Shown one piece after another: positions 3 through 18,713 of a stretch of 21,395 bases of DNA. A model generated the notes under the pieces. The model made no database searches and was not told the origin of the DNA. It saw only the letters and a list, made by a program, of their open reading frames with translations. Positions within the stretch are counted from its first letter, which is position 1; every line of letters starts with the position of its first letter. The position numbers and the translations under genes were made by a program. The stretch spans positions 1 to 21,395 of the forward strand of contig DATGZA010000034.1 in NCBI GenBank assembly GCA_035297365.1, in the 5' to 3' direction. The DNA comes from Nitrososphaeraceae archaeon. Lineage in GTDB: Archaea > Thermoproteota > Nitrososphaeria > Nitrososphaerales > Nitrososphaeraceae.

Positions 3-311
3 CCAAATATAGAATTCAAAGAATTTGATTCAATTGAAGAGATACAAAATGAAGGGGATACTCTTTACATTTTGGATTCGGTAGAAAAAATAAAAAAAGT
101 GATGGTAATAACCGATTTAGATCAGTTGGCTACAGACAAAATATATTCGGTACATGATTTTGATTTAGCTACCAACCTCAAGATCCTAAAGAAAGTAGGT
201 GTGATAAAAAACATAATTATTCTTGGCGTGCCCATGAATATTACACATAGTCAGGCATTACAAGAGATTAGAGAAAAAATTATATCCATTTCAATCTCAA
301 AAAATGACTAG
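3..311 (+). CDS. Hydrogenase maturation endopeptidase-like protein (HycI/HybD fold), 5'-truncated by the window edge
   Basis: Frame is open from base 3 (PNIEFKEFDSIEEIQNEGDTLYILDSVEKI...YSVHDFDL...IIILGVP), so the track's start at 72 is internal. ILDSV and SVHD match the Asp and S-x-H metal-ligand motifs of HybD/HycI proteases. Adjacent to a [NiFe] large subunit. Confidence 0.7.
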   Translation, partial: PNIEFKEFDSIEEIQNEGDTLYILDSVEKIKKVMVITDLDQLATDKIYSVHDFDLATNLKILKKVGVIKNIIILGVPMNITHSQALQEIREKIISISISKND

Positions 312-1557
312 CACAACTCATACACGGATCATATGCCCTTATTATTTTTTCAAGCTCATGATAAATAAAGTGTTTATCTTTGTCTAAAATGTTAGGTAAA
401 AGATTTTTTATATCGTTTTCCATCTTAATTTGATTTTGTGCTGTTGGTATTACAAAGTTAGCAAATTGTACTTTTCCTTCTCTGTTAAGTTCAACCATAT
501 GATACAATGTACCCCGAGGAGCCTCTATTACTCCAACTCCTTTACCTTCTCTTGTTTTAATTTCTGGTGCTTGCTCCGGGTTAAATTCATTTTCTTCAAG
601 AATTTGAATTGTATGATCTATACAATGTAAAATTTCAATAGATTGTGCAAGGTTATTATGATAAATATTGTTTGATGGAAAGACTTTAAGGATTTCAGAT
701 AAATCTTTTTTTGAATCCTTATGAATAGATTCTCTATTCAAGTTCAACCTAGCCAAAGCTCCTACCATGTATTCTTTGTCCCTGAATCTAAATCCAGTAG
801 CCTGAGAATATGGAATAATAATTCTTTCTAGGTGATTCCAATATTCATCTTCTTTTATTTTCATTCCATCTGAAGAAGCGATTTCACCCTCCAAAAAACT
901 AAAATCCTCTGTAACTAAAGATACGAAAATGGACTCTCTACTAAGGTCAAAATTGCATTCATAAAATATTTTTATGAGTTCAAGAACCGTATCCCTAGTT
1001 TCTTTAAATTGTGACAACAATTCTTTCAAATTTTCTTTTGAAGGTAGATGAGAAAACTGTCCAACCTTTTCAAATGTGGGGTGAACAGCCCTTCCAGCAA
1101 CTATTTTCGAAAGATTATTTCCAAGACTTTTTACACTGAAACCTTGTTTGATTAGATAATTTTTTGAATCGTCAAAATCAAATACGGAATCGGTGTTAAA
1201 GACATCAGGAAGACAGAAGAAGTACAAATGTAAAGCGTGATCCCTTATCATCATCCCATATACAGATAACTTTCTTAATAATTCAGTTTGTTTTGTTGTT
1301 GTGATTTGGAGACATTTTTCAATTGATTCAATGCTACAAGTTAAGTGTGCTATGCTACATGTACCACATATCCTAGAAACAAATTGTGGAACACTAGAAT
1401 AATGTCTATTTCGTACTGCTTGTGTATAAAATCTTTTATTTTCATTTATCTTTAATTTGACATCTTCTACTTTACCGTTCCTAATTTTTACTTCAATGTC
1501 TGCATGACCTTCTGTTTTGCTTATTTGTTCTATATTGATATCGAAACTATCATGCAT
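280..1557 (-). CDS. [NiFe]-hydrogenase large subunit, group 3 (3b-like)
   Basis: L1 RICGTCSIAH, L2 YDPCMSCASH plus a 7-aa tail (FLRLKWI); also KTEGH (proton-transfer Glu), GRAVHP, EAPRGTLYH and PTAQN. 425 aa, typical of cytosolic group 3b/HydA. Confidence 0.95.
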   Translation of the reverse strand: MHDSFDINIEQISKTEGHADIEVKIRNGKVEDVKLKINENKRFYTQAVRNRHYSSVPQFVSRICGTCSIAHLTCSIESIEKCLQITTTKQTELLRKLSVYGMMIRDHALHLYFFCLPDVFNTDSVFDFDDSKNYLIKQGFSVKSLGNNLSKIVAGRAVHPTFEKVGQFSHLPSKENLKELLSQFKETRDTVLELIKIFYECNFDLSRESIFVSLVTEDFSFLEGEIASSDGMKIKEDEYWNHLERIIIPYSQATGFRFRDKEYMVGALARLNLNRESIHKDSKKDLSEILKVFPSNNIYHNNLAQSIEILHCIDHTIQILEENEFNPEQAPEIKTREGKGVGVIEAPRGTLYHMVELNREGKVQFANFVIPTAQNQIKMENDIKNLLPNILDKDKHFIYHELEKIIRAYDPCMSCASHFLRLKWI

Positions 1558-2029
1558 TTACAAGACCAAATTCCTTTAGATAACTATCTAATTTTGATAA
1601 AAATAATCTTTCATCCATTGGACATCCTGAAATGAAATCGTCAACATTTACAAATTCTGAAATCGGTGATACTTTGCTTCTATGTCCAAATTGGACTAAA
1701 ATAGGGAAAATCTCATTTTTTGTTGAATCATCAAAGAAATTTCTTTGATTAGCTGGACTTCCTGTACATGCACAACTTCCTATTGCAATTAATTTTTTTG
1801 AATTCTTCCTTATCTCTTTAAGAAATTCAAGCTCTTTGTCATTTGAAATTGCTCCTTCTACAAAAGCCAAATCTAAATTAGTAAAATCGTTTTTCCCTTT
1901 TAAAGTTCTAAAATATTTAAATTCCAATAGATCTTTCCACTTGAAAAAATTATCATTCATTAATTCTATGAATACTATCGTACTGTCTTCGCAACATGTA
2001 AAGGAAAACCAGCCAGTTTTAAGTTTCAT
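1550..2029 (-). CDS. [NiFe]-hydrogenase small subunit, minimal (proximal Fe-S domain only, NuoB/HoxY-like)
   Basis: Motifs TCCEDS, FVEGAI, IAIGSCACTG and ISGCP. ATG at 2029 (159 aa) is preferred over TTG at 2086 because TTTAAATA lies 26-33 nt upstream. Overlaps the large-subunit start by 8 bp. Confidence 0.9.
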   Translation of the reverse strand: MKLKTGWFSFTCCEDSTIVFIELMNDNFFKWKDLLEFKYFRTLKGKNDFTNLDLAFVEGAISNDKELEFLKEIRKNSKKLIAIGSCACTGSPANQRNFFDDSTKNEIFPILVQFGHRSKVSPISEFVNVDDFISGCPMDERLFLSKLDSYLKEFGLVNA

Positions 2030-2054
2030 TGACACATTAGCAATAATGCTATCG

Positions 2055-2062
2055 TATTTAAA
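2055..2062 (-). promoter_or_regulatory. Archaeal TATA box (TTTAAATA) for the hydrogenase small/large operon
   Basis: TTTAAATA at -33..-26 from ATG 2029. The same octamer sits at similar spacing before the 14998 and 18111 starts. Confidence 0.55.
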
Positions 2063-2256
2063 ATAGTTCACCTTTTTGATTCCCAATTTTCATTTTAAAA
2101 TACTGGTTTTGAAAATTATATTAGAGCATTTTATTATTTGGATTACGTTTGTTATTTTATTAATTTCTAAAAATCGAATAACAGCATAAAGGTCACCAAC
2201 AAGAAAATTATCTTTTTCCAAAGAAATTTGAAACAGTTCTACATACCATAACAACA

Positions 2257-3312
2257 ATGGAAGAAAAGAGAATAAGTCTTGCACACGGAGCAGGAGGTGT
2301 GATTATGAATAACATGATTAAAAAGCAAATCTTGAAATACTTTAGTTTAAACCATCATGAGGTTTCATTAAATTGTCTAGACGATGCCGGTATAACTGAA
2401 GGTATCGTTTTTACTACAGATTCTTATACAGTAAAACCAATTTTTTTTCGTGGAGGCAATATTGGGGTAATGTCAGTTGCGGGAACCGTAAACGATATTG
2501 CAGTAATGGGTGGAGAACCATTAGTACTATCATGCAGTATGATAATTGAAGAAGGCTTCTCAATTGAGGAGTTAGATGTAATTATGAAGAGCATTCAAGA
2601 AACATGCATTAAAGCTGATGTGGATATCATTACAGGAGACACCAAAGTTCTAGAAAGAAATGCTTTGGATAAGCTAATTATTAATACTTCTGGTGTTGGT
2701 AAAAAAAGTCAATATTTAGAAAAAAATCTAAAAATTGTAAAAAGATACAGGCCCAACTTTAATTCTGATTGGTTACTTGATTCAAATATTCAGAAGGGCT
2801 ACAAAATAATAATTTCAGGAACACTAGGTGATCATGGGGTTGCTATAATGTCTGCAAGAAATGAATATGGTTTAGAGAGTCAAGTTGAATCAGATGTTGC
2901 ACCATTAAATAATTTGATTAAAAAAGGGCTTGATGTAGGAGGTATAGTAAGCATAAAGGATCCTACGCGTGGAGGACTTGCAAATCTTTTAAATGAATGG
3001 TCAGAGAAATCAAAAACTGGTTTTATAATTCTTGAAAAAGATATTCCCGTTAAAGAAAGCGTAAGAAGTGCATTGGGATTTCTTGGACTTGATGTGTTAG
3101 AAATAGGAAATGAAGGAAAAATTTGTCTAGCGGTAATACCGGAAAAAGCAGAAGAAATACTAGGTATCTTGAGGGAAACACCAGAAGGTAAGGATGCGAT
3201 GATAATTGGAGAGGCAACAGATGAATTTGATTTACCGATCTTGGAAACTCAGATAGGCGGTAGAAGAATCCTTGCAAAACCTGCAGGAGATCCTATTCCC
3301 AGAATATGCTAG
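2257..3312 (+). CDS. hypE: Hydrogenase maturation protein HypE (carbamoyl dehydratase)
   Basis: LAHGAGG, FTTDSYTVKPIFF, GTVNDIAVMG, TGDTKV, DPTRGGL and C-terminal PRIC. Confidence 0.97.
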   Translation: MEEKRISLAHGAGGVIMNNMIKKQILKYFSLNHHEVSLNCLDDAGITEGIVFTTDSYTVKPIFFRGGNIGVMSVAGTVNDIAVMGGEPLVLSCSMIIEEGFSIEELDVIMKSIQETCIKADVDIITGDTKVLERNALDKLIINTSGVGKKSQYLEKNLKIVKRYRPNFNSDWLLDSNIQKGYKIIISGTLGDHGVAIMSARNEYGLESQVESDVAPLNNLIKKGLDVGGIVSIKDPTRGGLANLLNEWSEKSKTGFIILEKDIPVKESVRSALGFLGLDVLEIGNEGKICLAVIPEKAEEILGILRETPEGKDAMIIGEATDEFDLPILETQIGGRRILAKPAGDPIPRIC

Positions 3313-4925: not shown

Positions 4926-5321
4926 TTAATTTATAAAATTCTCTTTTTCTTTTTGAATTAAAGGAATAATTTTTTTCATTATTATTTCATCAAAATTACT
5001 TTCCTCAAAATTTATAGTTAAAAATAGATAATAATTTTCATTGATTGGGATTATAGATCTGCCTAACTTTTCATATTTTCCAAATGCATATGTTAATTTT
5101 CCTATTTTTGGTTCAAATTTTAATCTTGATTTATGTCTAATTATGGCATTAACTGCAGATTCATGCATCTCTTCTTTAGAGAGGAATGGTTTTAATCCTT
5201 CTCTATATCGTTCATTTATAATATCACCGTTTTGATTGATTATGCTAACCCATCTTATAGACTGGTCACAACTGATTATATTTTCAATAAAAATAGAATG
5301 AAATTCATTATTTAATACCAT
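4926..5321 (-). CDS. DUF6659-type (roadblock/longin-like) protein typical of Thaumarchaeota
   Basis: IRWVSIINQNG...REGLKPFLSKEE...IGKLTYAFGKYEKL pattern recognised from this expanded family. Confidence 0.75.
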   Translation of the reverse strand: MVLNNEFHSIFIENIISCDQSIRWVSIINQNGDIINERYREGLKPFLSKEEMHESAVNAIIRHKSRLKFEPKIGKLTYAFGKYEKLGRSIIPINENYYLFLTINFEESNFDEIIMKKIIPLIQKEKENFIN

Positions 5322-6517
5322 TTCTTAGTTAGGTAATTTTTTTAATCGTAATAAAAAAGTTATGAATGAGTATTATCATGAATAATAAATTCTTTCACGA
5401 CCCATTAATCTATTACTCTAGCAACATTATTACTACCAGCAATAATATGAGTCGCAGAAGATTTTTTTGTCTTGCTTGATTGGTTAGTGTATCGTATTTG
5501 CTTCTTTTTATAGATATGCAAGAACAAGGATTATTCTGCGGTAAATAAATAAATGAATTACAGCAAACATTCTGGGTATTTTTTCCTTTCTTCGTCTATC
5601 TTTTTATTTATTTACTACCGTTAAAATACTTATTATTATTTTGTTCTTGAAAGTAATCCACCAAATGGGCTTGAAGATTCTCCATAGGTTATGTTATATA
5701 CTTCTTTTTTTCTCTCTGCATTAGATTTATTAAGGTTAGTGCCGCAAAAATACATTATAGAGATTTTAGTGGTAATTATAATATACCATTACAGGCATTT
5801 AAGTGTTTGTATTTAAGTGTTCAACAATAGAGAACTTTTTTGTGTTGTATTCAAATTTTGACTATAAAATAATTAAAAAATACCTATACTATAAAACGGG
5901 AATTGCAACTATTATACTTATATTGTTTAATTTCTTTTATTCAGTTAATTAATTATTTTATTAATTATTAGTATGTTATTTTTCCTTCATTATTTTGTTC
6001 ATAGAGATCTACATCTGATTATAATCTTATGATAAGTACTGGTATAATTTCTATGTATCTACAAGTACAACTTTTACTAATCATCTTATCGATTTTATTC
6101 ATGAAAAATTACCAATCACAAGAGTAGCTTTAATATATAGCAAATAATGAATAGTTCTTTAAGTATATAGAAATTCTTATATAAGAATGAACTACAAAAA
6201 CAGTACACCAGGTTAGGATTAAAAACTTGTATACGACTGTTAGATATTTTTAAACAATTTTGAAAAAAATGGTTTCCAAGAATTAACATAGTCTAAAGTC
6301 TTGTGTGTGCTCCACGTATGAATGATAAAAATATTTAACATAAATTTATGTCAGCAATTTTATTGATTCTTTCTCTGTTTTAACTTACTGTACCTCTGAT
6401 TAAGGACCCGATTGCTCTTTATCCTTCAAGTTGCCATGTATAAATATTTGAGAATTATATCCATGTTACACTCTGGAAAATAATCCGATTAAATAATAAA
6501 GAGGCCTTTCTTTCTAT

Positions 6518-7693
6518 TTGGTTATATCAAAAATGGACTTCATGAGTAATTTAAAGAATACAGCTGTAAATGAATTGTTAGAAAAGCCGATTCTTGCAGA
6601 TGAAAAAGATTCTATTTCCACGATAATAAACACACTTATCGAAAATAATGCCTACGATGTATTTGTAGATCTGTCTGGAAAGGTAGTCGGATACAATGTT
6701 CGTGATATCTTGGGAGTTAGGGATATCGCTTCTTCAAAACTTTCTGCCATTGGAAAGATGATCCCTACTTTATCTCCAACTAGTAAAATTTCTGAAGCAG
6801 CTAGAATATTGAGTTTGTATAGACGCAGGGCACTCCCAATAGTAGATAAAGAACATATCGTCGGTCAAATATCTGCAAAGAAAATTGTGCAGAAGATAGA
6901 CGAATATATGAAAAATGAGAAAAGTATGGAATTTCCTGCGTCAGAGCTAATGTCAGGAAATCCGATTGTAATATCCAGTAAGGATACAGTATCTTCTGCA
7001 AGGACAATTATGAGAAGGAGACGGATAGATCATTTGCCAGTAATTAGTAGTGAAAAGCTCTCTGGGATTATAACTTCAACGGATATTATGGTAACAATGT
7101 TACCTTCAGAAAGGATAGGTAGAAGAACCCTAGGAGTAGATGCAGGTAAGTCAAGATTTGATATGTCGGTATCTGGAATAACTAATAAAGATGTTATAAC
7201 GGCAGATATCACTGATAAAATTAAAACTGTGATCTATTTAATGACCAAAACTGATTCTACTTATTGTATTATGAAAGTCTCTGATGAAGTTCAAGGCATA
7301 ATTACTTATAGTGACGTTATTTCCTTACTTCAGGAAGAAGAAAAGTTTGAAAGTATTCCTATTTTTCTTATGGGGCTGCCAGATGATCCTTTTGAAGCGG
7401 AGCTAGCCAAATCCAAATTCAAAAATATAGTTCAATACATGAAAAAGGTTTATCCGGATATAGAACAAGCAAAATGTCGTATCAAAATGAGAGAGACTCC
7501 TTCTCCGAGAAAACGATATGAAGTTACGATAAACATTATGTCAACACATTCTAGTTACCACTACTCTGACATAGGCTGGGATCTTAAAAATATTTTTGAT
7601 CAAATAAGTAATGCTATGAAGAAAAAAGTTGCGCAGAGAAGTAAACGGACACAAAGGAATACTATGAGAAGAGTGGAGATTCCACAAGAGTAG
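6518..7693 (+). CDS. Four-CBS-domain protein fused to a C-terminal HPF/RaiA-like domain (candidate ribosome hibernation factor)
   Basis: CBS motifs (RALPIVD...GQISAK; DHLPVI...GIITSTD; VQGIITYSD). From about 7355, a beta-alpha-beta-beta-beta-alpha pattern with RYEVTINI and GWDLKNIFDQI, then a basic tail. The start could be ATG 6533 or 6542. Confidence 0.8.
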   Translation: MVISKMDFMSNLKNTAVNELLEKPILADEKDSISTIINTLIENNAYDVFVDLSGKVVGYNVRDILGVRDIASSKLSAIGKMIPTLSPTSKISEAARILSLYRRRALPIVDKEHIVGQISAKKIVQKIDEYMKNEKSMEFPASELMSGNPIVISSKDTVSSARTIMRRRRIDHLPVISSEKLSGIITSTDIMVTMLPSERIGRRTLGVDAGKSRFDMSVSGITNKDVITADITDKIKTVIYLMTKTDSTYCIMKVSDEVQGIITYSDVISLLQEEEKFESIPIFLMGLPDDPFEAELAKSKFKNIVQYMKKVYPDIEQAKCRIKMRETPSPRKRYEVTINIMSTHSSYHYSDIGWDLKNIFDQISNAMKKKVAQRSKRTQRNTMRRVEIPQE

Positions 7694-9118
7694 GTACACG
7701 CAGGCTACCAAGTTCTACATGAAAATTATAGAATGAGATTGATAGCAGAAAGAACACAGATTTGTACATGATGAAGCGTAATATTATAAAATCGTCGTGG
7801 ACATTATTTTACTGACTACATGAGGATAGAAATTGGGATTTTAAGAGCCTAAAACATATCATTCCCTTGATAGTAAACGCATCAGTATGCAGGCTGTTTT
7901 GAGTGTACTAATACATCTTCCTAGGTATTTTCGAAATTCTTGGTCAAGTAGAGGATTGAGATTCCCATCTGATTAATTAACGAAAATTTTCAAGATAAAT
8001 ATATTATACAAATGACTATCGATGGCATATTTGATCATTCTTATCAATTTCATGTGTAATCCCTGAATTTCTGTTTTGTTAAATTGTTATGGGTATCTCC
8101 ATGCATTCGTTTATCAATATTCTTGACGCAATACATTTCTAAATCAAGTCGGAAGAATGTTGAATTTTTCGTCAACTGTTTGCATAAATGCCTTGACATT
8201 TCAAGTACCTAACACAATTCCCATGCCTGTTGCAAATCCGGTGCTAACCGTTGTTAGAAAGAACTTTTCAAACGTATTAGCTTTTGCAGGTGAAGATGAA
8301 CTTTTATCTCTCCTTATCCTTATGATAGTTTATCTTTTTCTTTTTTTCACTACACTTTTTATATGGTTTTTCAAGCTTTTAAAAATTGCACGGATCTGTT
8401 TATTGATAGGAAAATATTATTATTAATTAAATCTGATAACACATAAAAATGTAAATATTAATTAGTTTCGTCAATTATTTACAGGTTTAAATAGAAAATA
8501 CTGTAAAAATTTAATAAACAGTAATATATAAAATTATTGTTGTCCTAAAATATTAAGACATTAGGTTTAAGATTACCTGAAGGTGAGAATAACTATCCTG
8601 TGCAAATTTCAAATTATTTACACAAGTAGTTAACGTACGATGTGATCTCAAAAAAGAACGAACAAATGAACCCGCCGAACACGTCTAGTTAACTATATGA
8701 CATCTGAAAATTTTCCTGTAAGACATAGATTATAATCAGGGAATAAAACAAATACAATATTAACATAAAAAGAAAAAAAGAATAACAAAAATAACCAGGT
8801 CCGATATGAACTAATAATGCAACAAAACATCCGCTGGATAAAAAAATTTTGCATATTGCCTATTAAACACAGAAATAACTAAAAGCGTGTATCAGAATAT
8901 CCCACATTCTAGCATTCCTTGTGAATTAAGGCATGACAAGCAGATACAGCTGTAACATTTAATAAAGAATGAGGGTCGATCAGATCGAATTTTACAAAAT
9001 ATCTATTAAATTGAAAATATGGTTTATTCTTTTATTTTTGTTTAGGCGTTAGAAATGAAAAAGATCTACATTATTAACCTGATTGTCAGATAGAATCTGA
9101 ACAAGTAGAGAAGAGTAG

Positions 9119-10657
9119 ATGAAATTTAAGACTAAAATACTCGGTATAGAATCTGGGGGAAGACCTGTGATCACTTTGAGTAAGGATGATGCCTATGAGC
9201 TCGGAATAAGGAGCGGAGAACGGGTTAAACTTTTGTATGAAAATAAAGAAATGATTGTAATAGTAAATATTGTTACTAAATCTGTTCCAAAAGGAATTGC
9301 CGGCATTTATGATGAGTTGAGAACAATCGGAAACATTAAGGAAAGTAGTGTTATAGAGATAGAGGTAATTGATTTTCCTCAGTCCATTTATTTTATACAG
9401 AACAAATTGAAAAAAGGTAAGTTAAATTTCAAAGAGATCTTTGAAATAATAAAAGATGTTGCAAATGGAAATCTAAGTGAATCTGAAATTGCTGCTTTCT
9501 TAACTGCCCTTGACCATCAGGGCTTAGATATCGATGAAGCAACTAGTCTTACGCTGGCAATGGTTGAGACAGGCAAGAAGTTACAAATAGCAAATAAACC
9601 AATATGTGACAAGCATTCTATTGGCGGAGTTCCTGGAGATAAAATCACACTTCTTGTAGTTCCTATAATTGCTGCAGCAGGATTAACTATTCCAAAAACT
9701 TCTTCTCGTGCCATAACTTCTGCTAGCGGAACAGCAGATAGGGCTGAAATCCTCATGTCCGTTAATCTTACAATAGAACAGATGAAGATGGTTGTAGAAA
9801 AAACTAATGGTTGTATTGTATGGGGAGGGTCTCTGGAATTAGCACCTGCGGATGATAGGTTCATACAAGTTGAATATCCTCTTTCAATTGATCCTCTCTT
9901 ACTCCCCTCAATCATGGCAAAGAAAAAGGCTGTCGGAGCAAATTATTTGGTATTAGATATTCCATCAGGACGGGGCACAAAAGTAAAAACAACCGGTGAC
10001 GCAGATCAGTTAGCGAAAGAGTTCATGGAGCTTGGAAAAAGATTGGAAATAAAAACTCAATCAATAGTATCATTTGGCGAACAACCGATAGGTAATACTA
10101 TAGGACCAGCTTTAGAGGTCCGGGAAGCCCTAGAAGTACTCCAAGGAAATCAAGTTCCCGATCTTATAGAAAAAGCAATAAACATTTGTGGTTTAATATT
10201 CGGTATGACCGGAATAGGGGGAAAGGAGCTTGCTCTAGATATTTTGAAAAGTAGAAAGGCAGAGAAAAAAATGAAGGAAATAATATACAGGCAAGGTGGT
10301 AATTCAGAGATTCAAATAGAAGATATAAAAATTGGAGACCAAAAGCTAGAAATTCATGCGGAAAATTCGGGAAATGTTCTGTGGTTGGATAACAATATTA
10401 TTGTTACGATTGCGCGTTTGGCTGGTGCTCCCAAAGATAAGGGAGCTGGAATAATTATTCATAAAAAAATAGGACAAAAGGTGAAGAAAGATGATAAATT
10501 ACTTACAATTTTTGCGGAAAAGACAAATAAGATTCACAGCGTAGAAAAGATGGTGACAGAAATAAAACCGTTTCATATTGGTGATAGACAAGAAATGATA
10601 ATTCATACGTTTCTAGATATTCCTGAACCTAAAAAAACGTTCATCTTGGAACGTTAG
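9119..10657 (+). CDS. AMP phosphorylase (archaeal NMP phosphorylase, thymidine phosphorylase family)
   Basis: Extra N-terminal barrel domain, DKHSIGGVPG, PKTSSRAITSASGTAD, LAPADD and ARLAGAPKDKGAG; 512 aa. Confidence 0.93.
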   Translation: MKFKTKILGIESGGRPVITLSKDDAYELGIRSGERVKLLYENKEMIVIVNIVTKSVPKGIAGIYDELRTIGNIKESSVIEIEVIDFPQSIYFIQNKLKKGKLNFKEIFEIIKDVANGNLSESEIAAFLTALDHQGLDIDEATSLTLAMVETGKKLQIANKPICDKHSIGGVPGDKITLLVVPIIAAAGLTIPKTSSRAITSASGTADRAEILMSVNLTIEQMKMVVEKTNGCIVWGGSLELAPADDRFIQVEYPLSIDPLLLPSIMAKKKAVGANYLVLDIPSGRGTKVKTTGDADQLAKEFMELGKRLEIKTQSIVSFGEQPIGNTIGPALEVREALEVLQGNQVPDLIEKAINICGLIFGMTGIGGKELALDILKSRKAEKKMKEIIYRQGGNSEIQIEDIKIGDQKLEIHAENSGNVLWLDNNIIVTIARLAGAPKDKGAGIIIHKKIGQKVKKDDKLLTIFAEKTNKIHSVEKMVTEIKPFHIGDRQEMIIHTFLDIPEPKKTFILER

Positions 10658-15117: not shown

Positions 15118-15552
15118 CTATGTAGACATTTCATTGTTTGAATTTATTTCGACATTTATTGTCCAGATCATGTATGGATGGATAGCACAAATATAACTAT
15201 AAACTCCTTCTCTCTCGAAGGTATAATCAAATTTGTCTCCCGGAAATAAAATGTTTGAGTCAAACAGCGATGAAGGTACTGAAATATTTTTCGAGTAATT
15301 TGAATTTATATTAGGATCGTTATCTAAAACCTCGACACTGTTAACAGTATGAATTGTGCTATCCTCATTTATCCATTCAACAGTGTCACTAACATGAACA
15401 TTCGTTGGATTTGGCATAAAATGTGGAACAGTAACGGTGCCTGCACCTTGAGGAATAGTTATAATAAATTTTTGATTCATTGCATAAGAGCCAGAATACG
15501 AGCTGCAAAAAAAGTATAATAATAGTAATAAAAGAATAATATTATATCTCAT
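15118..15552 (-). CDS. Secreted plastocyanin/azurin-family cupredoxin (type-1 Cu)
   Basis: Signal peptide from ATG 15552 (MRYNIILLLLLLYFF...), VEWINED-x2-IHTV, FDS-x-IL-x-PG and YICAIHPYM (His/Cys/His/Met ligands). The track's start at 15606 is an alternative. Confidence 0.9.
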   Translation of the reverse strand: MRYNIILLLLLLYFFCSSYSGSYAMNQKFIITIPQGAGTVTVPHFMPNPTNVHVSDTVEWINEDSTIHTVNSVEVLDNDPNINSNYSKNISVPSSLFDSNILFPGDKFDYTFEREGVYSYICAIHPYMIWTINVEINSNNEMST

Positions 15553-15903
15553 AAGGAAGCAATGATTATTCACTGTATTATTAATATTTTTCCTAATAAT
15601 GGCCATCAGTAATGATACACCTCATTAATAACATCAATTAAAATGATAACAACAATATTTTTTTATTTTATTTTGTAATTTCATTTGACAAATTTTAACT
15701 TAATATAGATAGAATATTCATAATATCACGTAAGAATTAATCAATTAATTATTTATTACTCTAGCGATATTTGCGGTGAACCCCTGAGATTCGGGTGAGT
15801 TCAAATTCCACAACATCAGTACCTTTTTTTCTATTCTAAAGCAATTTCGGTTGCAAAATTGATAATAAAATAGTTATTACAGTTAACCGAAACTAATACC
15901 ATA

Positions 15904-16365
15904 ATGGAAGATAGCAAACATATCCCTGCGGTAGAAGATATAATGACTCCAATGCCACTAGAAGTAATTAACCTTTCTGACGACGTATATACCGCGTCAA
16001 AATTAATGAAAGAAAAGGAAATCAGTTCAATTATTGTTCTAGACGAAGAAAAGCATCCAATTGGCATAATAACTGAACGGGACATAGTAAGACGGGTTGT
16101 TTGCGATAAGAAAAATGCATCAAATACACCGGTAGAATCAATTATGTCAAAACCATTGGTAACCGTTGAATATAAAGCTAATATTGACGAAGCCGTAGCT
16201 ATTATGACAAAAAACAAAATTAGGAGGCTGCCTATTGTTAAGGATGGTCATTTATATGGTCTTATTACCACAACCGATTTGATTAAATATATGTTTCAGA
16301 AATATGTTACTGATAAGGAAATTTTGAAATCCCTATTAAGATACAAGAAATATTGGGAAGAATAA
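15904..16365 (+). CDS. Stand-alone CBS-pair (Bateman) protein
   Basis: VEDIMT, IGIITERDIV, IRRLPIV and GLITTTDL. Confidence 0.93.
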   Translation: MEDSKHIPAVEDIMTPMPLEVINLSDDVYTASKLMKEKEISSIIVLDEEKHPIGIITERDIVRRVVCDKKNASNTPVESIMSKPLVTVEYKANIDEAVAIMTKNKIRRLPIVKDGHLYGLITTTDLIKYMFQKYVTDKEILKSLLRYKKYWEE

Positions 16366-16810: not shown

Positions 16811-17857
16811 ATGAAGATCAATACTTGTTTAATGCACGATGGATCTTTTTTGATAAAACATTGCAGAATACTTTCAGTTTTTCTTATATTATTTTCTATG
16901 CTTTTGACTCAGATAATAATTGAAGACTCATCGGCTATTTCAAACCAGGCAGCAATTAAACAAATAACTTTAATTGCATATGAAAAGGTTCTACAAATAG
17001 CTCCAGATAATCAATTACATCCCGGTGGTATACTTTATGAGGCGATGACATACAATGGTACTATTCCAGGTCCGACAATTGAATTAAACCAAGGCGACAT
17101 TTTAAATCTAACTCTAAAGAATGCAGCTGATATAGTTCACAGCATCGATTTACACGGTATAAGCGGACCGAGCCAAGCAATATCCGGATCCTTAAAACCG
17201 GGTGAGAGTAAAACTTGGCAAATTACAGCTGAAAACCCAGGAGTTTTTGTTTACCACTGTGATGGTGACAATCTAAATGGTATTTGGGAACATATGTCAG
17301 GAGGTATGTATGGTGGTTTGGTAATTCATCCTCCACAAGAAAAACCAGCAAAAGAATTTTTTATCGCATTTAACGAAGTCTACAATAATAAAGACCAAGG
17401 TTTGTTTGTTGGAAATAATAAAACAGTCGGATCATTTGACATGACTAAATTCCTAAATAATCAGCCTGATTTGATCCTAACTAACGGTATGGCATTTAAA
17501 TATTTTCCACGAATAGGAACAATTGTTAAAATTCAGCTCAATGAAAATGCAGACATGTTTAAAGTAAAAACAGGAGAATTAACTAGATGGCATATTATTA
17601 ACGCAGGCCCCAGAAATGAAATTACTTTTAATTTTGCAGGCGGAATGATAGATAAAATTAATAATAATTTTAACGGATCAGTTATTAAAAATACTGTTCC
17701 TCGAATTTATGAGGTCTCTGTTCCACCCGGAGGAGGAAAAATCATAGAGACAACCTTTCCAGAAGATGGCATCTATTTTGGAAACGATCATGACATTGGA
17801 AATCTGTTAAAAGGTGCAGGGTTTATAGTTTATGCAGAAAAAAATGAGATAAAGTAA
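16811..17857 (+). CDS. NirK-like two-domain multicopper protein, secreted or membrane-anchored
   Basis: YNGTIPGP, HSIDLHG, YHCDG...EHMSGGMYG and GIYFGNDHD give complete T1 and T2 Cu ligand sets; N-terminal hydrophobic segment. The catalytic His position reads TFNFAGG. Confidence 0.85.
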   Translation: MKINTCLMHDGSFLIKHCRILSVFLILFSMLLTQIIIEDSSAISNQAAIKQITLIAYEKVLQIAPDNQLHPGGILYEAMTYNGTIPGPTIELNQGDILNLTLKNAADIVHSIDLHGISGPSQAISGSLKPGESKTWQITAENPGVFVYHCDGDNLNGIWEHMSGGMYGGLVIHPPQEKPAKEFFIAFNEVYNNKDQGLFVGNNKTVGSFDMTKFLNNQPDLILTNGMAFKYFPRIGTIVKIQLNENADMFKVKTGELTRWHIINAGPRNEITFNFAGGMIDKINNNFNGSVIKNTVPRIYEVSVPPGGGKIIETTFPEDGIYFGNDHDIGNLLKGAGFIVYAEKNEIK

Positions 17858-18110: not shown

Positions 18111-18713
18111 ATGCAAAATGAAAATAATAAAATTGAAAAGATAAACGTTGTAGGAATAAAGGTTTTGGAACAAAATGGAATTAATATAGATGAAATAACA
18201 AAATTATTGGTATATAACGCATCAGTAGAATTTGCGGCTTATTACTATTTTACTAATTTGAGAATGCATTGTACAGGACAAGACGGAGAGAGTATTAAAG
18301 GAGTTATAGAGGATGCAAGATTAGAAGATTTAAGTCATTTTGAATCATCCTTGTCGAGAATATATGAATTGGGGGCAATACTACCTATTGATGCCCAAGA
18401 TTTCATAAGGATGTCGGGTTGTGAATTCCTTCAACTCCCTTCGCCTAACAAAACAGATTTAAAAGAAATACTACTAAAATGTTTAAAAGCTGAGCAGGGA
18501 GCTATAGTAAATTGGAATAAGTTATGTAACCTAACTAATGGTAAAGATCCTGCAACTTATGACATAGCCAAGGATATTCTACGAGAAGAGATTGAACATG
18601 AATCTTGGTTTTTAGAGTTGCTATATGGAAGACCATCAGGACATATGAGAAGGAAGTTTCCTGGAGAACGTCCTCACACGCATAAACATTCTAGATCATT
18701 AAATTTATCATAA
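18111..18713 (+). CDS. DPS-like (DPSL) ferritin-superfamily protein
   Basis: EFAAYYYF, EDARLEDLSHFE, SGC, KAEQGA, GKDPATY, EEIEHESWF and PSGH. Confidence 0.93.
   Translation: MQNENNKIEKINVVGIKVLEQNGINIDEITKLLVYNASVEFAAYYYFTNLRMHCTGQDGESIKGVIEDARLEDLSHFESSLSRIYELGAILPIDAQDFIRMSGCEFLQLPSPNKTDLKEILLKCLKAEQGAIVNWNKLCNLTNGKDPATYDIAKDILREEIEHESWFLELLYGRPSGHMRRKFPGERPHTHKHSRSLNLS

Follow-up and report, generated by a model that had tools for sequence, protein, structure and literature searches.

Fusions of a CBS module to a ribosome hibernation domain have been described from two archaea. HibA of the hyperthermophilic euryarchaeon P. abyssi (Q9UYR4; PDB 9SR9-9SRF and 9T7H) carries four CBS domains in residues 1-269 and an HPF/RaiA-like domain in residues 270-392 (Madru et al., Nat Commun 2026, PMC13324472). 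According to the cryo-EM work reported there, the C-terminal domain of HibA occupies the 30S subunit's mRNA/tRNA channel, the CBS module is placed at three positions on the 50S subunit across three conformations, and a loop formed by residues 190-207 extends to the peptidyl transferase centre (PMC13324472). Translation is inhibited by full-length HibA and not by its N-terminal module alone, the C-terminal domain being required, and deletion of the gene is reported to result in a smaller 70S pool and delayed regrowth (PMC13324472). AMP binds to the isolated CBS module (Kd 12 uM) more tightly than ADP (65 uM) and ATP (113 uM) do, and AMP and ATP are described as having no clear effect on the ribosome binding or conformation distribution of the P. 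abyssi protein (PMC13324472). The same paper places the HibA family in 47% of archaeal genomes, and stand-alone HPF/RaiA-like proteins mostly in DPANN and Nitrososphaerales (PMC13324472).

The second member, AHA of Haloferax volcanii (HVO_2384), has the same 4xCBS-HPF architecture and holds two AMP molecules between CBS3 and CBS4 (Souza et al., EMBO J 2026, PMC13728122). Its authors, whose search seeds included a protein of Nitrososphaera viennensis, count 3160 homologues across 2723 species and also report paralogues (PMC13728122). Together, the two papers provide cryo-EM structures, knock-out phenotypes and AMP binding, with translation inhibition reported for HibA; as far as these descriptions go, the only homologues with demonstrated ribosome binding are those of P. 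abyssi and H. volcanii (PMC13324472, PMC13728122).

Here, we analysed a stretch of 21,395 nucleotides from a Nitrososphaeraceae archaeon (contig DATGZA010000034.1 of assembly GCA_035297365.1), referred to below as the window. A key finding from this analysis is that the gene at 6518..7693 on the forward strand (stop codon included), delimited from the ORF list, the sequence, its homologues and a family profile, very probably encodes a member of the HibA/AHA family of archaeal ribosome hibernation factors in a Nitrososphaerales (Thaumarchaeota) genome. The protein shares its domain architecture and fold with this family and is homologous to HibA as well as to bacterial HPF. The ORF yields 391 aa when read from the TTG at 6518, and 386 aa if the in-frame ATG at 6533 is taken instead. 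The two nearest database homologues (P0001 and P0002, 96% and 94% identical) each have 386 aa; the start nevertheless stays ambiguous between TTG 6518 and ATG 6533, because more distant homologues in an alignment of 24 Nitrososphaeria sequences (A1) reach about to the TTG. On the forward strand, some 40 nt upstream of the ATG, the sequence TTAAATA (6489..6495) might serve as an archaeal TATA box, a weak reading because the surrounding region is AT-rich.

The N-terminal part of the protein (6560..7333 on the forward strand, approximately residues 15-272) is a module of four CBS domains, or two Bateman pairs, as judged from Pfam, AlphaFold2 (AF2) and Foldseek. The initial annotation had read four CBS domains from the letters, and the Pfam CBS model (PF00571) indeed matches in four stretches with an E-value of 6.2e-28. 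CBS was the only Pfam family detected in the whole protein at E<=10, and NCBIfam returned sub-threshold CBS-type matches alone. A full-length AF2 model, built from the 24-sequence alignment with a mean pLDDT of 78.4, matched CBS tetrads of the PDB in Foldseek, including SSO3205, AMPK gamma, SriD, MJ1225 and Dri, with E-values from 1e-17 to 1e-12 and target TM-scores of 0.7-0.8.

The CBS3 domain is followed by a long loop (7097..7186, forward strand; approximately residues 194-223) which, by alignment, is the counterpart of the 'PTC loop' of HibA and of 'loop 3' of AHA. It is collinear with the HibA region containing residues 190-207 both in the single-sequence alignment and in the alignment of profile A3, described below. 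As expected of a flexible loop, the confidence of the full-length AF2 model is low at residues 202-209, and E198, R199, I200 and G206 are invariant among the 24 Nitrososphaeria sequences. The third and fourth CBS domains each carry a GIIT-x-x-D motif, GIITSTD in CBS3 (residues 183-189) and GIITYSD in CBS4 (260-266), which we take to be the ribose-binding motif; among the 59 sequences of A3, conservation reaches at least 90% at G183, G260, I261, T263 and D266. Conservation of these motifs alone suggests that the CBS3/CBS4 interface could be an adenine-nucleotide site, and the same motifs alone point to counterparts of the two AMP sites that AHA is described as having (PMC13728122).

The C-terminal part of the protein (7355..7642, forward strand) is the HPF/RaiA-like domain, and here AF2 models, Foldseek matches in the PDB, a profile of the domain and PF02482 matches of its relatives all bear on the assignment. 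In the full-length model the secondary structure runs E282-285, H291-311, E315-325, E333-342, E346-353 and H356-386; a separate model of residues 276-391, built from a 39-sequence alignment (pLDDT 89.1, pTM 0.74), has the identical order of elements. Thus, the order of elements proposed in the initial annotation (strand, helix, three strands and a second helix) is recovered by both models on the same residues. When the C-terminal model was compared with the PDB, 22 matches were obtained at E<=1e-3, the best being 5mmj_y (4.4e-6), and ranks 1 to 25 were all bacterial or chloroplast entries of HPF, RaiA, pY, RafH or MPY with TM-scores of 0.5-0.78, among them the HPFs of V. cholerae (4hei_A, with a target TM of 0.78) and of E. 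coli (2rql). The first unrelated match stood at rank 27 with a TM-score of 0.32. These comparisons support an HPF/RaiA fold for the modelled domain, in agreement with the fold first read from the sequence and contrary to the outcome, a domain folded otherwise, that the initial annotation had named as refuting its reading.

The last helix is extended and passes into a Lys/Arg-rich tail (7613..7690, forward strand; approximately residues 366-391), visible in the sequence and in the AF2 model. Nine of the final 24 residues of the translation are K or R, bearing out the Arg/Lys tail noted at the outset, and pLDDT falls below 50 from residue 376 onward in the full-length model. By analogy with HibA, the last helix and tail would take the same place on the ribosome.

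Sequence comparisons lead to the same assignment by way of the domain's relatives. A search of a library of 1.84 billion proteins with the C-terminal 116 aa returned 136 relatives at E<=1e-3, 90 of them at E<=1e-10; with so many relatives, and with many residues of the domain invariant among the 24 Nitrososphaeria homologues, the domain is not a chance reading. K298, S299, K300, F301 and N303 in HPF helix 1 are invariant in A1, and K300 is invariant in A3 as well. The 136 relatives fall into 59 full-length proteins (at least 340 aa, with a C-terminal match), 59 short ones (up to 200 aa) and 18 between. A profile made from the window's domain and 38 of the short relatives (A2, 39 sequences) matched S. 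aureus HPF in the PDB (6qbz_A, 6.3e-6), together with 6s0x_v (1.8e-5) and 5nd8_v (1.9e-5) and, more weakly, Listeria HPF (8uu4_w, 8.4e-4), Thermus 4v8h_AX (4e-3) and E. coli HPF (0.02). In the A2 alignment the W-D-L...F-D helix start that had been singled out from the letters is placed against D-D-L...I-D of S. aureus HPF. The top match of A2, a Q-beta A1 capsid fusion (1.9e-6), was judged spurious, as it consists of two 28-residue stretches with an i-Evalue of 0.16 each.

The initial annotation had proposed a comparison with PF02482 (Ribosomal_S30AE), and this comparison held for the family rather than for the window's own sequence. The model was matched neither by the whole protein at E<=10 nor by its C-terminal 116 aa at E<=1, but 13 of the 39 members of A2 matched it individually at E<=1, the best at 8.3e-7, and A2 as a profile reaches bacterial HPFs. 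A phmmer search of the PDB with the C-terminal 116 aa likewise gave nothing significant (best E 0.2, Cmr2). Taken as a profile, then, the sequences support homology of the C-terminal domain to HPF/RaiA. An hmmsearch of A2 against the 152 six-frame ORFs detected no second HPF domain in the window; the sole other match was a CBS-pair ORF, recovered through CBS residues contained in A2.

Homology to HibA extends over the whole protein. The profile A3, composed of the window's protein and 58 full-length representatives from the C-terminal search (59 sequences), had as its top PDB match 9sr9_H, at an E-value of 7.2e-48 and in one stretch running from profile position 11 to 368 against chain residues 6-376 of 392. 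The second was 9l96_a (406 aa), at 5.1e-44 over chain residues 4-392, and both alignments cover the C-terminal domain. The window's single sequence also had 9sr9_H as its best match (8.2e-11) over the CBS region only. The link to the C-terminal domain of HibA rests on A3 and on the fold, because A1 aligned in the PDB to the CBS part of HibA only and HibA was not among the A2 matches at E<=10. The Foldseek PDB library, which ends at 2026-04-08, lacks coordinates of both HibA and AHA, and the structural comparison with these two proteins is therefore not a direct superposition. The entries 9l96, 9l98, 9l9c and 9l9v label the chain 9l96_a as 'CBS domain-containing protein' only; the A3 alignment makes it evident that this is a further structure of the HibA/AHA type. 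Searching the full-text literature for '9L96' returned unrelated papers only.

Set beside these systems, the window's protein resembles HibA in its build. The two belong to the same length class (391 vs 392 aa) and their parts come in the same order, a CBS tetrad with a long loop behind CBS3, then a short linker and an HPF/RaiA-like domain, although their pairwise similarity is low and the window's single sequence aligns over the CBS part alone. They also differ in their hosts: that of HibA is a hyperthermophilic euryarchaeon, whereas that of the window is a mesophilic, AT-rich member of Nitrososphaerales, known here from sequence and models. With AHA, compared here by its published description, the protein has in common the 4xCBS-HPF architecture and an extended terminal HPF helix (PMC13728122). 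Bacterial and plastid HPF, RaiA (YfiA) and pY proteins share the fold of its C-terminal domain (TM 0.5-0.78) and the bacterial ones a profile-level similarity that includes the D-L...I/F-D start of the last helix, but it is the bacterial-type HPF/RaiA domain, not the window's, that the PF02482 model matches. The window's HPF domain, moreover, stands behind a CBS tetrad, whereas these proteins stand alone or with a long-HPF dimerisation domain, and it has a longer last helix and a basic tail compared with bacterial and plastid HPF. Among CBS-only factors, which comprise the Dri, Sri/ARC and CM families, SriD (9zng_7, 3.9e-17) and Dri (9e7f_3, 7.8e-15) of the Dri and SriA-D/ARC group have a similar CBS-tetrad fold; unlike the window's protein, Dri and Sri are described without an HPF domain (PMC13324472, PMC13728122), and ARC too is reported to lack one. 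The AMPK gamma subunit is likewise a four-CBS disc that resembles the window's model (E ~3e-17, target TM ~0.7), but it belongs to a kinase complex, whereas the window's protein lies outside such a complex and has a predicted ribosome-binding domain instead.

A genome scan placed homologues at 40 loci, all of them in Nitrososphaerales, Nitrososphaeraceae or Nitrosocaldus. The nearest are L001 (92% identical) and L002 (91%), both in Nitrososphaerales MAGs whose DNA runs collinear with that of the window and is about 90% identical to it; at none of the other loci does identity exceed about 53%. Nitrososphaeraceae genomes commonly carry two or three HibA/AHA paralogues from two well-separated clades, as in bin_OS2.4 (L014, L026 and L036) and SMAG_U16437 (L015 and L032). 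A maximum-likelihood tree of 34 rows shows two main clades within Nitrososphaeraceae, one with 9 rows and the other with 21; left out of it were L009 (contig end), L034 (partial copy) and, for internal stops in a simple frame extension, L035, L036, L038, L039 and L040. The window falls together with L001 and L002 on a long separate branch (0.78, support 100/100). The source data of the AHA paper label Nitrososphaeraceae sequences as AHA, and the contigs of L001 and L002 were not found in the samples of those data or in the text of the HibA supplement (PMC13728122, PMC13324472).

This long branch, joined only weakly (91/77) to the 21-row clade, would fit a diverged HibA paralogue that has another job in place of classical 70S hibernation, such as binding of free 30S subunits only, sequestration of a partner, or CBS-type regulation. 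Two or three copies do occur in Nitrososphaeraceae genomes, with more than one locus in seven genomes among the 40 loci, and the name 'predicted transcriptional regulator' is attached to three of the 120 homologues listed; CBS-tetrad proteins such as HhpR are described as transcription factors (PMC13324472). We nevertheless consider such a change of role unlikely. Every hallmark of the family is kept and strongly conserved, from the CBS tetrad and its CBS3 loop to the HPF domain with its basic tail, and a pattern scan of the closest genome recovered L001 and the partial copy L034 only, with no second full-length copy. The L001-type gene is therefore probably the main copy of its genus.

Less probable still, and in our judgement barely credible, is that the protein is a generic CBS metabolite sensor that does not act on ribosomes and whose likeness to HPF arose because a simple alpha/beta fold converged. 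That the window's own C-terminal domain has no direct Pfam or PDB sequence match would fit such a sensor, but convergence does not account well for profile matches of A2 to bacterial HPFs (6e-6 to 8e-4), for PF02482 matches in a third of the aligned relatives (13 of 39), for an end-to-end alignment of HibA with A3 at 7.2e-48, or for Foldseek matches that are exclusively hibernation factors through rank 25. The HibA/AHA assignment is thus the reading we retain: the finding is real and was correctly interpreted at the outset, and it is already known, the protein being an ordinary member of the family. The initial annotation had itself allowed that the family might not be new, and HibA and AHA, as described, have the same architecture and a CBS module that binds AMP, ADP and ATP (PMC13324472, PMC13728122).

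The surroundings of the gene are sparse. It lies between gene-poor, AT-rich flanks of 1.2-1.4 kb on either side (5322-6517 and 7694-9118), with a GC content of 25% in window positions 5001-6000 compared with about 30% in the window overall, and L001 carries about 1.1 kb of inserted DNA near window position 8540. None of the small ORFs in these flanks has protein conservation above DNA conservation in comparison with L001, L002 and L034, and no Rfam families or tRNA genes were found in the window.

An AMP phosphorylase gene (9119..10657, forward strand), which scores 561 bits with TIGR03327 where the cut-off is 535, begins 1.4 kb downstream. A homologue of it lies within 6 kb of a HibA homologue at only two of the 40 loci, L001 and L002 of the same genus; a functional link with the hibA/AHA-type gene was rejected as conserved synteny, given two loci of one genus and a distance of 1.4 kb. 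A CBS-pair protein of 153 aa is encoded 8 kb away (15904..16365, forward strand), overlapped by an antisense ORF at 15831..16217. CBS-pair homologues lie within 6 kb of a HibA homologue at 14 of the 40 loci; CBS-pair genes are common in general, and their proximity possibly mirrors just this abundance. Except for these CBS-pair genes, no conserved neighbours were found beside homologues outside the genus among the 40 loci.

Further from the gene, the window encodes the large and small subunits of a NiFe hydrogenase (280..1557 and 1550..2086, both on the reverse strand) and HypE (2257..3312, forward strand), assigned from profile models. The hydrogenase subunits are closest to sulfhydrogenase-type (group 3b-like) models and score well below the cut-offs, HypE scores above its cut-off, and a hydrogenase in a Nitrososphaerales genome may merit a look. 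The window also contains a plastocyanin-like cupredoxin (15118..15606, reverse strand), a NirK-like two-domain multicopper oxidase (16811..17857, forward strand), which does not reach its cut-off, and, at or above its cut-offs, an archaeal DPS starvation protein (18111..18713, forward strand). The copper proteins presumably fit an ammonia-oxidising member of Thaumarchaeota. Other neighbours are a class II aldolase, VIT1, a rhodanese-MBL protein and a permease.

The partial copy L034 (6004..6456, forward strand) lies in the same genome as L001 and is a 150-aa ORF consisting of the end of CBS4 and the whole HPF-like domain. It is 93% identical to the C-terminus of the window's protein and corresponds to window positions 7236-8469. 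The duplicated DNA continues for about 780 nt beyond the stop codon at 83% identity; after the duplication comes an AMP phosphorylase gene fragment of 48 aa. To judge from the sequence, L034 looks like a recent partial duplication that yields a stand-alone HPF-like gene, in line with the published proposal that loss of the CBS module gives rise to the stand-alone HPFs of archaea. It is tempting to speculate that the hibernation factor of this genus may be splitting from HibA towards a stand-alone HPF within a two-tier hibernation system, a thought to which we give little chance of being right. If the L034-type copy were expressed and the neighbourhood functional, soil ammonia oxidisers might run such a system, in which a constitutive HPF-only blocker would act beside an AMP-tuned full-length factor and AMP salvage would control the ligand.

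By analogy with its characterised homologues, the window's protein would bind ribosomes, inhibit translation and bind nucleotides. As in HibA and AHA, its HPF domain would block the decoding channel of the 30S subunit, and the four-CBS disc would dock on the 50S subunit and cover the tRNA sites. The long CBS3 loop could enter the peptidyl transferase centre, as it can in one HibA conformation, and the CBS3/CBS4 interface would probably prefer AMP over ADP and ATP. In this way, idle 70S ribosomes might be silenced and protected in starvation or stationary phase. The initial annotation had gone on to infer that energy charge is coupled to ribosome silencing, which goes beyond the evidence; nucleotide binding as a switch of ribosome engagement is unproven for the whole family, its characterised homologues included.

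The architecture, ribosome structure, phenotype and phylogenetic spread of the family were published in 2025-2026 with Nitrososphaeraceae included, and the gene described here is nothing new in kind. Its value lies in annotation. The expectation that pipelines would label the protein only by its CBS domains is correct for Pfam, for NCBIfam and for most source names, the usual one among homologues being 'CBS domain-containing protein', but not for 10 of the 120 homologues listed, which JGI calls 'CBS domain-containing protein/ribosome-associated translation inhibitor RaiA'. Since Pfam and NCBIfam see CBS alone, the name that the gene should receive is HibA/AHA-type ribosome hibernation factor, in a lineage of soil Nitrososphaerales, slow-growing ammonia oxidisers or their relatives, in which dormancy physiology matters.
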